Shown: one piece after another, positions 23,686 to 26,526 of the stretch
Numbering within the stretch: position 1 is the stretch's first letter
Layout of the letters: every line of letters starts with the position of its first letter
Source of the DNA: Candidatus Gastranaerophilales bacterium
GTDB taxonomy: Bacteria; Cyanobacteriota; Vampirovibrionia; Gastranaerophilales; Gastranaerophilaceae
Reading direction: 5' to 3'
Length of the DNA stretch: 38,680 nt
NCBI GenBank assembly: GCA_944326645.1
Contig: CALVEW010000001.1
Span: 1 to 38,680 of the forward strand
Program-made: the position numbers and the translations under genes
The notes under the pieces: generated by a model
What the model was told of the DNA's origin: nothing
The model's database searches: none
The model's input: the letters and a program-made list of their open reading frames with translations, nothing else

Positions 23686-23818
23686 TTTCACATGTTTTGT
23701 TTTTTGTAATAATTGTTTACAAAAGGAGGTTGGTGGATTCAAGAAGACAGTAATCAAGGAATCAAGAGGGAACGACTTGTGACTCGGATTTTTATCCACT
23801 TTTTGGGATACACTTCAT

Positions 23819-23850
23819 CACCCTTTCCTAGGGAGAGGGTGGGGTGAGGG
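23819..23850 (+). other. G-tract element: 10-bp hairpin overlapping a canonical G-quadruplex motif
   Basis: CACCCTTTCC-tag-GGAGAGGGTG (23819-23841). It has one G:U pair on the + strand that would be a C-A mismatch on the - strand. GGGAGAGGGTGGGGTGAGGG (23831-23850) is four G3+ runs with loops of 1-3 nt. Confidence 0.5.
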
Positions 23851-23910
23851 TTAGTCAATTTAAACACTATTCAAAGTGTAGGGTACAATTTATTGCTCCA
23901 TACTACTATC

Positions 23911-23998
23911 ATATTGAATTTATTAAATGGTGGGCACGCATTCGCTTTGCCCACACTACTTACTTAGTAATTAACAAGAATAATTTGTTGGGTTGCAC
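23911..23998 (+). repeat. Direct repeat copy A (44-bp block, variable linker, 22-bp block)
   Basis: 23911-23954 is identical to 24403-24446, and 23977-23998 is identical to 24454-24475. Contains the hairpin GTGGGCA-N11-TGCCCAC. Copy A also has GTTGGGT-tgc-ACCCAAC. Confidence 0.9.
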
Positions 23999-24023
23999 CC
24001 AACCTACAACTTGCTAATAAATA

Positions 24024-24032
24024 TGATATAAT
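24024..24032 (+). promoter_or_regulatory. Extended -10 promoter TGaTATAAT of the ORF24 transcript
   Basis: Perfect TGnTATAAT. The -35 region is weak. Predicted +1 is near A24039. Confidence 0.45.
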
Positions 24033-24108
24033 TATTTAAAGGGTAACACTCACACTTACCACCGACACACGCAGTAGAATGGAAACTGGTCGGAAAGGGG
24101 GTGATACT

Positions 24109-24183
24109 ATGGAAAGATATCAATTAAAAAGTGCTATCAAGCTACTGATAACACTTTTACAAATAATTGACATTTTACTGTAG
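24109..24183 (+). CDS. 24-aa hydrophobic/amphipathic peptide, candidate type I toxin (module 1)
   Basis: AAGGGGGTGAT (near-perfect extended anti-16S complement) lies 4-5 nt before ATG 24109. Product is MERYQLKSAIKLLITLLQIIDILL. Hand-translated. Confidence 0.45.
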   Translation: MERYQLKSAIKLLITLLQIIDILL

Positions 24184-24224
24184 GGAGTGAATGGTTCAGG
24201 AATTAGCACTTCCTGAACTCCCTT
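24126..24224 (-). ncRNA. Predicted antisense RNA of about 99 nt, convergent with and overlapping the 3' half of the ORF24 mRNA
   Basis: +1 is predicted at 24224 from the promoter at 24231-24258. It ends at a 10-bp stem AGUGUUAUCA/UGAUAGCACU (one G:U pair) plus U4-5, at 24155-24126, inside the ORF24 coding sequence. Confidence 0.45.
24183..24222 (+). terminator. 3' stem-loop of the ORF24 transcript
   Basis: GGGA-(7-nt bulge)-GTTCAGGAA-ttagcac-TTCCTGAAC-TCCC, starting inside the stop codon. The downstream tail TTATTAATATT is A/T-rich rather than a clean T-run. Confidence 0.45.
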
Positions 24225-24230
24225 ATTAAT

Positions 24231-24258
24231 ATTATACCGTATTTTTACATTTTTTCAA
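24231..24258 (-). promoter_or_regulatory. Near-consensus promoter of antisense RNA 1
   Basis: On the - strand, TTGAAA, a 16-nt spacer, then TATAAT. Confidence 0.5.
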
Positions 24259-24402
24259 TATTATCCTAAATTTCAATATTAATAATAGTTTCAGATAAGA
24301 AGCCAATAGATATGTATGATTTGTTAATCAGAGAACAAAATTGTTTGTCAGTATAGCAATGCTAACCTTGCTTACTAAAAAGTTTTGTTTTGTTGTGCTA
24401 TA

Positions 24403-24475
24403 ATATTGAATTTATTAAATGGTGGGCACGCATTCGCTTTGCCCACCATACTTAGAATAATTTGTTGGGTTGCAC
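24403..24475 (+). repeat. Direct repeat copy B
   Basis: See copy A. The hairpin GGTGGGCA-N11-TGCCCACC lies about 60 nt downstream of the 189-aa gene stop on the - strand and may act as its terminator. TGcTATAAT (24396-24404) abuts the left repeat edge. Confidence 0.9.
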
Positions 24476-24505
24476 TACTTACTAATTTTATTCTAATTTT
24501 TGCAC

Positions 24506-25075
24506 TCAAGTTTTACCATTACCAATCATGTCTTTTAAAGAATCAGCCATATGATCATAAAGGAAAACTTCTGAGTGAATTATTTTCATATTTTCTCCTT
24601 CACCTCTTGTGATTGTAAATAGAATTGAGTTATCAGGGAAATTCTTATCTATTTCTTTCAATGTAGAACTAGAACCATGAGTAAGTGTCATTGAATCGCC
24701 ACGCGAAGCAATTCCAGATTTATAAACAGATTTAAGCCTATTGTACATATCTTCATAAGTTACATTCTCAATTTTTGAAACACCATTAGCAGAAGCTTTT
24801 TTTGCAGCCTTATAAGATTTAACATCTAGTCCTACTTTGCTAGCAGCTTTTTCTAATTCTTTGAAGGCAGACTTATTTTTTATTGCCAAACCAGCAATTA
24901 CTGCTACTGCAAGAGCTCCTGCTCCAATACCTACCTTCATGCCGGTACTCATCTTTTTGTCATTGTTTTCTGCAGGTTTTTGAGAAGAAGTATTGTCTAT
25001 CGGTTTTGAAGCAACTGTATTTACACCATTACCCAAATTTGTTCCACTTACATTTAAACCAGTTACACCAGACAT
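24506..25075 (-). CDS. Hypothetical 189-aa single-pass membrane protein
   Basis: Start set to ATG 25075 (SD AAGGAAGG 6 nt upstream) rather than the track start at 25120. Gly/Asn/Ser-rich N-terminus, one TM segment GMKVGIGAGALAVAVIAGLAI, and a C-domain of about 110 aa. No recognised family. Confidence 0.7.
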   Translation of the reverse strand: MSGVTGLNVSGTNLGNGVNTVASKPIDNTSSQKPAENNDKKMSTGMKVGIGAGALAVAVIAGLAIKNKSAFKELEKAASKVGLDVKSYKAAKKASANGVSKIENVTYEDMYNRLKSVYKSGIASRGDSMTLTHGSSSTLKEIDKNFPDNSILFTITRGEGENMKIIHSEVFLYDHMADSLKDMIGNGKT

Positions 25076-25172
25076 AATTAACCTTCCTTTTATTTTGTTT
25101 CTATATTTATATAAAAACAAGGAAAAATATTAATTTGCCCGCCCCGCCACATCATATCATATCATATAGCAG

Positions 25173-25200
25173 ATTATACCTGAGTTTCAGCCTTTGCAAA
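25173..25200 (-). promoter_or_regulatory. Predicted promoter of the 189-aa gene
   Basis: On the - strand, TTTGCA, a 16-nt spacer, then a perfect TATAAT. This gives a leader of about 90 nt. Confidence 0.4.
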
Positions 25201-25256
25201 ACCATTTTAATATTTCGTTACATTATTAATACCTTGCAAATGCTATTTAATTTAAA

Positions 25257-25285
25257 TAGACAAATAAAAGTAAATATAGTAATAT
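25257..25285 (+). promoter_or_regulatory. Promoter of the ORF29 transcript
   Basis: TAGACA, a 17-nt spacer, then TAATAT. Predicted +1 is at A25292. Confidence 0.5.
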
Positions 25286-25382
25286 GATTCCACAGGGTAA
25301 AAGTAACTCTTTTCAAAAGGAAAGCTAACCAACAAAATTAGTTAAGACTTCGGGTTAGCTCCCGACTAGAAGGGAGGTCTAT

Positions 25383-25472
25383 ATGGATAATTTCAATATT
25401 AGTTTATTATTAATCTTTCTGATTTTATACATATTAAAAAACGGCTCTTACCCAAAAGGCAAGAACCGCTAA
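25383..25472 (+). CDS. 29-aa hydrophobic peptide with a basic tail, candidate type I toxin (module 2)
   Basis: SD GGGAGG lies 5 nt before ATG 25383. Product is MDNFNISLLLIFLILYILKNGSYPKGKNR. Hand-translated. Confidence 0.5.
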   Translation: MDNFNISLLLIFLILYILKNGSYPKGKNR

Positions 25473-25516
25473 GACTTCTACAGAGTTATTGACAGTCTAG
25501 CAAACTGTCACCCTGT
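25436..25516 (-). ncRNA. Predicted antisense RNA of about 81 nt, convergent with and overlapping the 3' end of the ORF29 mRNA
   Basis: +1 is predicted at 25516. It ends at an 11-bp stem CGGUUCUUGCC/GGUAAGAGCCG (two G:U pairs that are C-A mismatches on the + strand), loop UUUUG, then U6 (25468-25436), inside the ORF29 coding sequence. Confidence 0.5.
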
Positions 25517-25530
25517 ATATTTATTATTTA
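25491..25530 (+). terminator. 3' stem-loop and T-rich tail of the ORF29 transcript
   Basis: GACAGT-ctagcaa-ACTGTC (25491-25509), then ACCCTGTATATTTATTATTT. Confidence 0.4.
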
Positions 25531-25551
25531 CTATGTTCCTAAATTTGTCAA
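25523..25551 (-). promoter_or_regulatory. Near-consensus promoter of antisense RNA 2
   Basis: On the - strand, a perfect TTGACA, a 17-nt spacer, then AATAAT. Confidence 0.55.
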
Positions 25552-25641
25552 TCCCGTGACTATTTTAAAGATTTAATTAGAAATAATAAAAATATAACAA
25601 ACTTATCAAAATGAGATTTTTATAATTTAGTTATAAAATCC

Positions 25642-26526
25642 TTATTTTACACTTACTAAATCATGCATTATGATGTTTCTGATGTAACTGTAATAAGGAT
25701 TATTTCCATATTTTTCAATTCTGTTTAATAAATCAGGTGCAGAAATAAAACCTTGATTATATGCAATTTCTTCTAAACAAGAAATTTTTGCACCGGTATT
25801 CAATTCCATAGATTTAACAAAATTGCTTGCCTGCAACATTGAATCATGAGTTCCTGTATCTAACCAAGCAAAACCTCGTCCTAGAATTTCTACATTTAAC
25901 ATTCCACGTTCTAAGTACATTTTGTTCAAATCTGTAATTTCTAATTCGCCTCTATCTGATGGCATTAATTGTTTTGCAAAATCACATACGTTAGAATCAT
26001 AGAAATATAAGCCTGTTACTGCATAACTTGATTTTGGATTTTTTGGTTTTTCTTCTAATGATATGGCTTTTTTATTTTTATCAAATTCTATTACACCAAA
26101 TCTTTCAGGGTCTTTAACCAAATAACCGAATACAGTTGCACCGTGATTTGATGTAATCGCTTCCTTCATCATTGTTGAGAAACCGTGACCGTGGAATATG
26201 TTATCACCAAGTATCAACGCAACATCTTCTCCGTTTATAAAATCTTCTGCAATAATAAAGGCATCTGCGATACCATTTTGAATATATTGAATCTTATATG
26301 ATAACTTGATACCAAATTGTGAACCATCACCTAAAACTTTTATAAAATTATCATAGTCAGTTTCATTTGTAATAATTAAAATGTCCTTTATCCCTGCTAA
26401 CATTAGAGTAGACAATGGATAATAAATCATTGGTTTATCATATATTGGTAACAAAATTTTTGAAATCGGTTGAGATGCAGGGTATAATCTTGTTCCTGCT
26501 CCTGCTGCTAAAATGATACCTTTCAT
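25642..26526 (-). CDS. rfbA: Glucose-1-phosphate thymidylyltransferase
   Basis: The N-terminus MKGIILAAGAGTRLYPASQPISKILLPIYDKPMIYYPLSTLMLAGI is near-canonical RmlA. 294 aa. Confidence 0.95.
   Translation of the reverse strand: MKGIILAAGAGTRLYPASQPISKILLPIYDKPMIYYPLSTLMLAGIKDILIITNETDYDNFIKVLGDGSQFGIKLSYKIQYIQNGIADAFIIAEDFINGEDVALILGDNIFHGHGFSTMMKEAITSNHGATVFGYLVKDPERFGVIEFDKNKKAISLEEKPKNPKSSYAVTGLYFYDSNVCDFAKQLMPSDRGELEITDLNKMYLERGMLNVEILGRGFAWLDTGTHDSMLQASNFVKSMELNTGAKISCLEEIAYNQGFISAPDLLNRIEKYGNNPYYSYIRNIIMHDLVSVK

Follow-up and report, generated by a model that had tools for sequence, protein, structure and literature searches.

Does a short stretch of DNA from a member of the Gastranaerophilales encode a small membrane toxin together with the RNA that silences it, or do its promoter-like, coding and terminator-like strings coincide by chance? 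The question is raised by positions 25257 to 25551 of a 38,680-nucleotide (nt) stretch of contig CALVEW010000001.1 from Candidatus Gastranaerophilales bacterium, here referred to in its full length as the window. An earlier note had proposed that this locus contains a small membrane-peptide mRNA and a convergent, 3′-overlapping cis-antisense RNA, the layout of a toxin–antitoxin system of type I. Taken alone, one sequence proves little, and its evidence is mixed: in this 30% GC DNA, promoter-like strings are frequent (33 observed compared to 23 ± 5 in shuffled sequences), and terminator-like strings are rare (3 compared to 1.4). A comparison of nine distinct copies backed the proposed layout. 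We are highly confident that 25257-25551 is a conserved peptide/antisense-RNA cassette, and we consider a genuine toxin–antitoxin pair fairly probable, the roles of toxin and antitoxin being those that we infer from the sequences. The cassette looks like a new type I toxin–antitoxin-like family with a predicted layout closest to those of par/Fst and bsrG/SR4, and it unites control elements, each of which was already known, in an unusual combination.

Identification and delimitation of the cassette

The unit under study is as follows:

25257-25551: whole cassette, 295 bp; its edges are the two −35 hexamers, and the flanks are unrelated among the copies

We identified nine distinct cassette sequences, or 10 if we count the variant of the window copy in L003, which differs from it at two sites, both synonymous. 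The nine copies are that of the window (identical in L001, L002 and L008), L016, L017, L027, L038, L040 (identical to L041 and L042), L057, L060 and L064, of which one is chromosomal (the window and related strains), two are located in prophage-like regions and six on phage contigs from IMG/VR. They are diverged, with a mean column identity of 80%, and are placed in unrelated flanks. In the sequence comparison, the homology to the phage and prophage copies started at the plus strand −35 hexamer (TAGACA) and ended at the minus strand −35 hexamer (TGTCAA), and the unit is therefore a self-contained 295-bp two-promoter cassette. The ORF, the promoters and the terminator were kept in all nine copies; the lack of such an arrangement in related genomes had been named in the earlier note as a reason to abandon its proposal. 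With nine distinct homologues that keep all of the elements and show covariation, we regard the comparative data as decisive in excluding a chance reading of 25257-25551.

For a peptide of only 29 amino acids, homologues were searched for with DNA patterns and by way of neighbouring genes. When a codon-degenerate pattern was built from the final 12 codons, of which 11 are sense codons and one is the stop, it matched a single species genome, L016, which is a contig of a metagenome-assembled genome with the cassette in a prophage-like region. The scan of genome contigs relied on the C-terminal motif KNGSYPKGKNR, found in a minority of the family, and the distribution across genomes is thus under-sampled. 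L017 was reached via homologues of the adjacent DUF1353 protein, and 32 IMG/VR loci were retrieved by alignment of the upstream tail-fibre-assembly-like protein. Further loci were retrieved with a leader pattern, and these two routes together yielded L027, L038, L040, L057, L060 and L064.

BLAST searches with the cassette against plasmids and phages gave chance matches or none, three viral scans with conserved blocks gave no match, and neither did the first metagenome scan with the codon-degenerate C-terminal pattern. The sole match in the second metagenome scan was a look-alike promoter before a prepilin gene (L024). The pattern CGGGTTN{5,6}CCGACTAGAA produced four false positives, which were rejected as Hsp70-like coding sequences in L062, L066 and L067 and an unrelated region in L058. 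The final viral scan, for the 26-amino acid subfamily, recovered already known members only, and a search of the 307 kb of collected loci with R1, a covariance model of the antisense RNA, gave neither additional nor diverged copies.

The peptide gene

The features of the peptide gene, all on the plus strand, are:

25257-25285, plus strand: predicted promoter of the peptide mRNA, TAGACA (25257-25262), 17 nt, TAATAT (25280-25285), with 9/12 matches in the promoter scan
25292, plus strand: mRNA 5′ end (+1), as predicted, giving a leader of 91 nt
25372-25377, plus strand: Shine-Dalgarno (SD) sequence GGGAGG, with 5 nt between it and the ATG at 25383
25383-25472, plus strand: 29-codon open reading frame (ORF) MDNFNISLLLIFLILYILKNGSYPKGKNR plus stop, from the ORF list, with the same frame and start in nine copies

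The TAGACA-17-TAATAT promoter, the SD sequence 5 nt upstream of the ATG and the 29-codon ORF were all present where the earlier note had placed them. In the nine homologues, the −35 hexamer reads T[AC]GACA and the −10 hexamer TAnnAT (conservation 0.96 and 0.91), and the spacer varies (0.65); taking both promoters of the cassette together, the hexamers are 0.91 to 1.00 conserved compared to 0.65 to 0.79 for the spacers. The SD sequence was found in all homologues, as GAAAGAGG or GAAAGGGGG, and the SD, ATG and frame were kept with an ORF of 26 or 29 amino acids in 9/9 copies.

The predicted product combines one hydrophobic stretch with a basic tail and has the consensus M[DES][NDK][FIL]N[IL][STA]L[LFI][LIM][IV][FL][LM]IL[YFC][IV][LFI]KNGS[YH]…[RK], in which M1, N5, L8, I14, L15 and K19-N-G-S22 are invariant. 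Among codons 1 to 22, the variable columns numbered 13, 3 and 18 at the first, second and third codon positions, respectively; the pairwise comparisons contained 164 synonymous codon differences, and the replacements were confined to L/I/V/F/M, Y/F/C, S/T/A or D/E/S. The ORF is thus under coding selection. Codons 1 to 18 are not covered by the antisense RNA, which therefore cannot account for their conservation. Among the copies, the C-terminal tail is variable (YPKGKNR, HYKK, YLNR, HLNR, YRIR, YPKR), and the terminator stem that is encoded there is preserved. A hydrophobic peptide of fewer than 60 amino acids, under selection for its coding sequence, is what a type I system calls for and was found in nine copies; we presume that the 29-amino acid peptide is a membrane toxin.

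The predicted antisense RNA and its terminator

The features on the opposite strand are:

25551-25523, minus strand: antisense promoter TTGACA-17-AATAAT, 11/12 matches in the scan, with a perfect −35 hexamer and 5/6 matches in the −10 hexamer
25436-25516, minus strand: predicted antisense RNA of about 81 nt, consisting of a 5′ hairpin, a single-stranded linker and a terminator
25436-25470, minus strand: intrinsic terminator (stem 25470-25440 plus a T run), located inside codons 19 to 29 of the ORF

TTGACA, AATAAT and the 17-nt spacing were identical in 9/9 homologues, with a spacer conservation of 0.79, bearing in mind that the minus strand −35 hexamer itself served to delimit the extracted homologue sequences. 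In the strain variant L005, this promoter, with identity extending through ACAGG, is followed by an SD sequence and an ATG, that is, a protein-coding start; a near-identical promoter precedes the prepilin gene in L024. TTGACA-17-AATAAT is thus a promoter type really used in the lineage.

The 81-nt minus strand RNA has a minimum free energy (MFE) of −35.6 kcal/mol (z = −5.4), and 0/200 shuffled sequences folded as well. Across the homologues, scored on an independent MAFFT alignment of the minus strand RNA, 92.4% of the cells were paired compared to 35% to 51% in controls with slid partners, and 7 pairs had changed on both sides. The 5′ hairpin was 93% paired, with 4/6 pairs changed on both sides, and RNAalifold recovered the same two hairpins. 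These results bear out the earlier reading of a predicted minus strand RNA of about 81 nt whose terminator lies inside the ORF. The RNA is without any ATG.

The terminator stem comprises 14 bp with 4 G·U pairs and was 98.4% paired across the homologues. The 11-bp stem with 2 G·U pairs given in the earlier note is correct as the core, but the full stem is the longer one if G·U pairs are counted. In each copy, 13 to 14 of the 14 pairs (2 to 4 of them G·U) form on the minus strand, compared to 10 to 12 pairs on the plus strand, where the stem is incomplete because the G·U pairs of the minus strand become A·C mismatches. The terminator was complete only on the minus strand in 9/9 copies, and it is thus strand-specific, as had been argued. 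Over about 80 nt, the RNA is the complete complement of the last part of the ORF (the final 11 codons) and of the 3′ untranslated region (3′ UTR). As in a type I system, a putative separate antisense gene was thus found, with its own promoter and terminator and complementary to the mRNA; the minus strand RNA is the presumed antitoxin.

Long-range and local structure of the mRNA

Four helices were predicted in the mRNA:

25292-25298, plus strand: 5′ strand of helix H1a, ACAGGGT, partner 25510-25516
25302-25310, plus strand: 5′ strand of helix H1b, AGTAACTCT, partner 25482-25490
25323-25330 / 25353-25360, plus strand: leader hairpin H2, AGCTAACC / GGTTAGCT, with a 22-nt loop
25482-25516, plus strand: mRNA 3′ element, consisting of the H1b 3′ strand (25482-25490), H3 (25491-25509) and the H1a 3′ strand (25510-25516)
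25491-25496 with 25504-25509, plus strand: stem of hairpin H3

For the predicted mRNA, folding gave z = −3.4 and an MFE structure in which the 7 nt at the 5′ end are paired with the 7 nt at the 3′ end. When the four helices were scored on a MAFFT alignment (A2), 91.4% of the cells were paired compared to 31% to 45% with the partners slid, 12 pairs had changed on both sides compared to 1 to 5 in the slid controls, and the covariation score was reached by 0/500 shuffles. Helix H1a was 97% paired with 1 pair changed on both sides, and its ACAGGGT/ACCCTGT is replaced by GCAGAGT/ACTCTGC in L017; H1b was 84% paired with 5 such pairs, as in the change from GTAAC/GTTAT to GATGC/GCATC. Hairpin H3 was 93% paired with 4/6 pairs changed on both sides, from GACAGT/ACTGTC to GGCAC/GTGCC or GGTAG/CTACC. 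The 8-bp leader hairpin, which the earlier note had already identified, was likewise 93% paired, and 2 of its pairs had changed on both sides in the homologues. The two ends of the mRNA, 220 nt apart, are thus kept complementary to each other, a feature absent from the earlier note.

The leader-loop repeat and possible sequestration of the Shine-Dalgarno sequence

Three further segments of the mRNA are of relevance to its control:

25343-25351, plus strand: leader-loop copy of the repeat TAAGACTTC, in the 3′ half of the H2 loop; predicted second antisense site
25470-25478, plus strand: 3′ UTR copy of TAAGACTTC, including the stop codon; its minus strand is the single-stranded linker of the antisense RNA
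25307-25314, plus strand: candidate anti-SD segment CUCUUUUC, overlapping H1b (with which it shares CUCU); alternative partner for GAAGGGAG at 25369-25376

The two copies of the repeat (7 to 9 nt) change together in the homologues, as TAGAACTTC, CAGAACTC, TAAGTCTC, TAGACCTC and TGACCTC. Since the 3′ copy is the template of the antisense linker, the repeat maintains the complementarity of the antisense RNA to the leader. Duplexes between each linker and its own leader loop averaged −11.8 kcal/mol compared to −6.1 kcal/mol for non-cognate combinations, with 0/20000 permutations reaching the observed mean and L064 as the sole weak case. The linker can, by this prediction, pair with the cognate leader loop, which would represent a second target and was not part of the earlier note.

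The segment CUCUUUUC could form 6 to 8 of 8 pairs with the SD region (GAAGGGAG or GAAAGRGG) in all homologues, and when the 3′ region was blocked, a helix between anti-SD and SD enclosing H2 was part of the predicted MFE structure of 9/9 mRNAs. These models would suggest, as a hypothesis, a switch at the SD sequence similar to that attributed to SR4. Concerning the pairing of CUCCC (25359-25363) with GGGAG (25372-25376) proposed in the earlier note, both segments are present and pair in the window, but only 2 to 4 of the 5 pairs can form in the other homologues and the pairing is not conserved.

Chromosomal and phage locations

The PurD protein encoded in the window has its nearest named relatives, with 51% to 64% identity, in metagenome-assembled genomes of Candidatus Gastranaerophilales and Gastranaerophilaceae, which places the host among the non-photosynthetic Cyanobacteriota of the gut. 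The cassette of the window is part of a variable island of 1.9 kb (23725-25641), located between rfbA and a gene for a protein of 51 to 54 amino acids. In the strain comparison, which was based on contigs that encode an identical RfbA protein, the island was absent from L004, in which rfbA has a terminator of its own. In other strains, the space that separates rfbA from the 51-amino acid gene contained a gene for a 200-amino acid membrane protein and genes for MntA/HepT, a type VII toxin–antitoxin pair, the latter being present in this hot spot in L008-L011. The 25257-25551 cassette, to which we refer as Module 2 of the island, was missing from L010-L015 with a boundary near 25236, and it was identical in L001, L002 and L008 although the L008 flanks were only 93% identical.

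It was also noted that the content of the island differs by strain and includes type I-like modules, MntA/HepT and a family of membrane proteins of 183 to 214 amino acids without a Pfam domain. In L005 (3879-3949, corresponding to window 25551-25512 and beyond), the antisense promoter is identical through ACAGG and is then followed by an SD sequence and an ATG (MFDNQD…), which replace the antisense RNA, and the contigs L006 and L007 break at the L005 junction (window 25514). This junction suggests that the exchange of cassettes takes place precisely at the start of transcription. Two copies of a repeated element (57 nt plus 22 nt) with the hairpin GTGGGCA…TGCCCAC are present in the island (window 23906-23998 and 24398-24475), and the element also occurs in L008-L013; it could be a REP-like (repetitive extragenic palindromic) or miniature mobile element. 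Just downstream of the predicted promoter of the gene for the 200-amino acid membrane protein (minus strand), an (ATCAT)n run at window 25150-25168 varies in copy number among the window, L002, L008, L010 and L015, and could be a phase-variation-like tract.

The phage copies are located in the late/lysis region, between the tail-fibre-assembly gene and the DUF1353/holin/endolysin genes, with the ORF on the late-gene strand, and in closely related prophages the two flanking genes abut and there is no cassette. Related phages (L025, L026, L028-L031, L044, L048-L050) were seen to contain other small cargo genes downstream of the tail-fibre-assembly-like gene, and the cargo at this moron site includes a secreted/lipoprotein-like ORF, a 58-amino acid Lys/Glu-rich ORF and a 70-amino acid ORF. 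In view of this varied cargo, the site is a general insertion hot spot.

Related designs with other peptides

The same layout was observed in another part of the island, here called Module 1 (window ~24024-24258), which contains an extended −10 element (TGATATAAT), an SD sequence and a 24-codon ORF, MERYQLKSAIKLLITLLQIIDILL, at 24109-24183. A convergent promoter, TTGAAA-16-TATAAT, is located at 24258-24231, and a candidate antisense RNA from 24224 to 24118 contains a 5′ hairpin and a terminator inside the ORF (z = −7.2). The slot of Module 1 holds MntA/HepT in L008-L011.

In phage L023 (6147-6421, minus strand; the same as L046), the two-promoter layout occurs at the same phage site with an unrelated 24-amino acid hydrophobic peptide, MVEKIIMLLLAFSIAAIALNLLKP. 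The 5′ and 3′ ends of this copy read GTAGGGC and GCCCTAC, the leader hairpin pairs CCUCC directly with the SD sequence, and an 8-nt repeat, CGAAGAAA, has one copy in the leader loop and another behind the stop codon. The direct repeats of Module 1 and L023 were not statistically significant on single sequences. The motif TTGACA-N7-GGAAYATAGTAAATAAT recurs before the antisense RNAs of all module copies and before the prepilin-type gene (L024 74-102).

Comparison with known type I systems

The earlier note had recognized neither the peptide nor the RNA as a known family, and the database searches agreed, with no family match in Pfam, NCBIfam, PHROG, PADLOC, PDB or Rfam. The peptide had 0 matches at E ≤ 10 to Pfam-A and NCBIfam, including the Fst/Ldr and HOK_GEF models, and no family match in PHROG or PADLOC; a profile of the nine peptides gave only a chance polyhedrin match among PDB chains. 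In Rfam, there were 0 matches at the gathering score, and below the threshold only a chance match to PyrR (E = 4.9).

In the par system of pAD1, the direct repeats DRa and DRb of RNA I/RNA II make the antitoxin RNA complementary to the toxin mRNA in its 5′ leader (PMC4147584). The cassette resembles par (Fst, RNA I/RNA II; SprA1/SprA1AS) in its convergent, 3′-overlapping RNAs, in its small hydrophobic peptide and in the complementarity to a leader far from the overlap, which is provided here by the covarying repeat at 25343-25351/25470-25478. It differs from par in several respects: its peptide has no Fst/Ldr match in Pfam, its terminator acts on the minus strand only whereas par has a shared bidirectional terminator, its overlap covers codons 19 to 29 whereas that of par does not reach the coding region, and its single repeat is located upstream of the SD sequence in the loop of a hairpin whereas DRa and DRb lie over the initiation region.

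The antisense RNAs of bsrG/SR4 and txpA/RatA are also 3′-overlapping and are encoded on prophages (PMC4147584), and binding of SR4 at the 3′ end of the bsrG mRNA refolds the mRNA and lengthens an SD-sequestering stem (PMC4147584, PMC3834814). The cassette shares with these Bacillus subtilis systems, which reside on the SPβ prophage and the skin element, respectively, a convergent cis-antisense RNA over the 3′ part of a putative membrane-toxin mRNA and a mobile or prophage location (8/9 copies in phages or prophages), and the models predict for it the same kind of SD switch as for SR4. In contrast to bsrG and txpA, there is no sequence similarity of the peptide or the RNA (Pfam, NCBIfam, Rfam), the peptide has 26 to 29 rather than 38 to 59 amino acids, the antisense RNA is shorter (about 81 nt, with an overlap of about 80 nt), and the host lineage is the Gastranaerophilales and not the Bacillota. 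To our knowledge, neither a 5′-3′ lock nor a leader-loop contact has been described for bsrG or txpA.

Long-distance pairing between the 5′ and 3′ ends of the mRNA keeps the full-length toxin mRNAs of hok and aapA1 compact and translationally inert. The comparison shows such long-range pairing here as well, with six pairs changed on both sides in H1a and H1b. In hok/Sok and aapA1/IsoA1, the antisense RNAs are directed against the 5′ region or the translation-initiation region, and 3′ trimming is required for activation, whereas the antisense gene of the cassette lies over the 3′ end of the mRNA; furthermore, the peptide of the cassette has no match in Pfam, HOK_GEF included, that would indicate homology to Hok/Gef or AapA. 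Membership in the Fst/par, TxpA/BsrG, Hok and AapA families was considered and rejected, the cassette departing in each case from their sequence or architecture.

Alternative explanations

A constellation that arose by chance, with a spurious ORF and promoter- and terminator-like strings in AT-rich intergenic DNA, would be compatible with the frequency of promoter-like matches (33 vs. 23) and with the 9/12 score of the plus strand promoter, but it is refuted by the nine diverged copies in unrelated flanks, in which all elements are kept, variation is codon-periodic and changes are compensatory, and we assign it practically no probability. Alternatively, the minus strand RNA might chiefly be a trans-acting small RNA, or merely the terminator of rfbA (25642-26526, minus strand), with an incidental overlap with the peptide gene. 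In the window, rfbA has no other terminator before 25470-25440, rfbA in the strain that lacks the island ends in a terminator of its own, and the order of 5′ hairpin, single-stranded linker and terminator is typical of trans-acting small RNAs. Yet the phage copies keep the promoter and terminator with no upstream gene on the minus strand, the linker covaries with the cognate leader loop, which identifies the mRNA of the cassette itself as the partner, and the homology ends exactly at the two promoters, so that both genes travel together; this explanation is in our view very improbable. A less remote alternative is that the cassette is real and its peptide a small phage membrane protein with a role in lysis timing, superinfection exclusion or receptor masking, which would make the cassette an antisense-regulated moron, an accessory phage gene that has a promoter of its own, and not an addiction module. 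All copies but that of the window and L003, that is, 8/9, are located in phage late/lysis regions near genes for tail-fibre-assembly, DUF1353, XhlA-like holin and endolysin proteins, on the same strand, and the short hydrophobic core would fit such a protein. We nevertheless consider this unlikely, because the copy in the window is on its own, within a chromosomal hot spot without phage genes, other strains carry a bona fide MntA/HepT pair at that site, the cassette keeps its own two promoters everywhere, and elaborate mRNA locking, by a 5′-3′ helix and a sequestered SD and AUG, is typical of harmful products, as established for hok and aapA1.

Several observations count against a type I toxin–antitoxin pair controlled in the manner outlined here. 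The fully hydrophobic core of the peptide is only about 13 to 15 residues long, the ORF of the phage copies is co-directional with the late genes and could simply be a late-gene product, and there was only one copy per locus, with no sign of the multiple copies that chromosomal type I systems commonly show. The +1 sites of both RNAs and the 3′ end of the mRNA are predictions, and no plus strand terminator was evident. The family is small, ten sequences of which six come from a single metagenome, and for this reason some of the covariation counts reflect few independent events. Furthermore, the predicted accessibility of the SD sequence hardly differed between the free (0.11 to 0.37) and the antisense-bound mRNA (0.08 to 0.40), and the anti-SD helix was already present in the free mRNA of some copies. 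The refolding step is weakly supported, given that the accessibility is low from the start and changes little and that the helix is preformed in some copies.

Proposed mechanism and implications

With the cassette read as a type I toxin–antitoxin pair, we propose that the plus strand promoter would give rise to an mRNA of at least ~225 nt with a structured 91-nt leader, a strong SD sequence and the 29-codon ORF, and the minus strand promoter to the ~81-nt noncoding antisense RNA, the presumed antitoxin. The antisense RNA would bind the 3′ region of the mRNA and contact the leader loop, whereupon the 5′-3′ lock would open and free the 5′ segment CUCUUUUC. This segment would then pair with the SD region, and the long duplex would become a substrate of RNase III, as assumed by analogy, with the result that translation would be blocked and the mRNA degraded. 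Upon loss of the antisense RNA, the peptide would be made and would damage the membrane. The setting is compatible with a function in stabilising the element, or in addiction or exclusion connected with phages.

The phylogenetic range of type I toxin–antitoxin families is narrow, and annotation pipelines hardly ever detect them; our literature search found no paper linking type I toxins with Melainabacteria or Gastranaerophilales. The cassette represents a well-delimited family, validated by comparison, which belongs to a gut lineage not yet in culture and to the phages of that lineage, and for which explicit base-pair predictions are offered, namely the 5′-3′ lock, the leader-loop contact and the candidate SD switch. 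If the mechanism is true, the ribosome-binding site would receive an anti-SD segment from a hok-like lock once the antisense RNA has opened it. In phages of this lineage, small-peptide cassettes under predicted RNA control occupy a moron site next to the lysis genes, and one chromosomal hot spot alternates type I-like and type VII (MntA/HepT) modules. We tentatively raise the possibility that this is the first type I family in the Vampirovibrionia (Gastranaerophilales), a lineage of the Cyanobacteriota, and their phages, that it moves between phage late regions and chromosomal toxin–antitoxin hot spots and combines bsrG/txpA-, par- and hok-like controls, and that its RNA design, apparently reused with unrelated peptides in Module 1 and L023, may be a general chassis for small toxins in this lineage.

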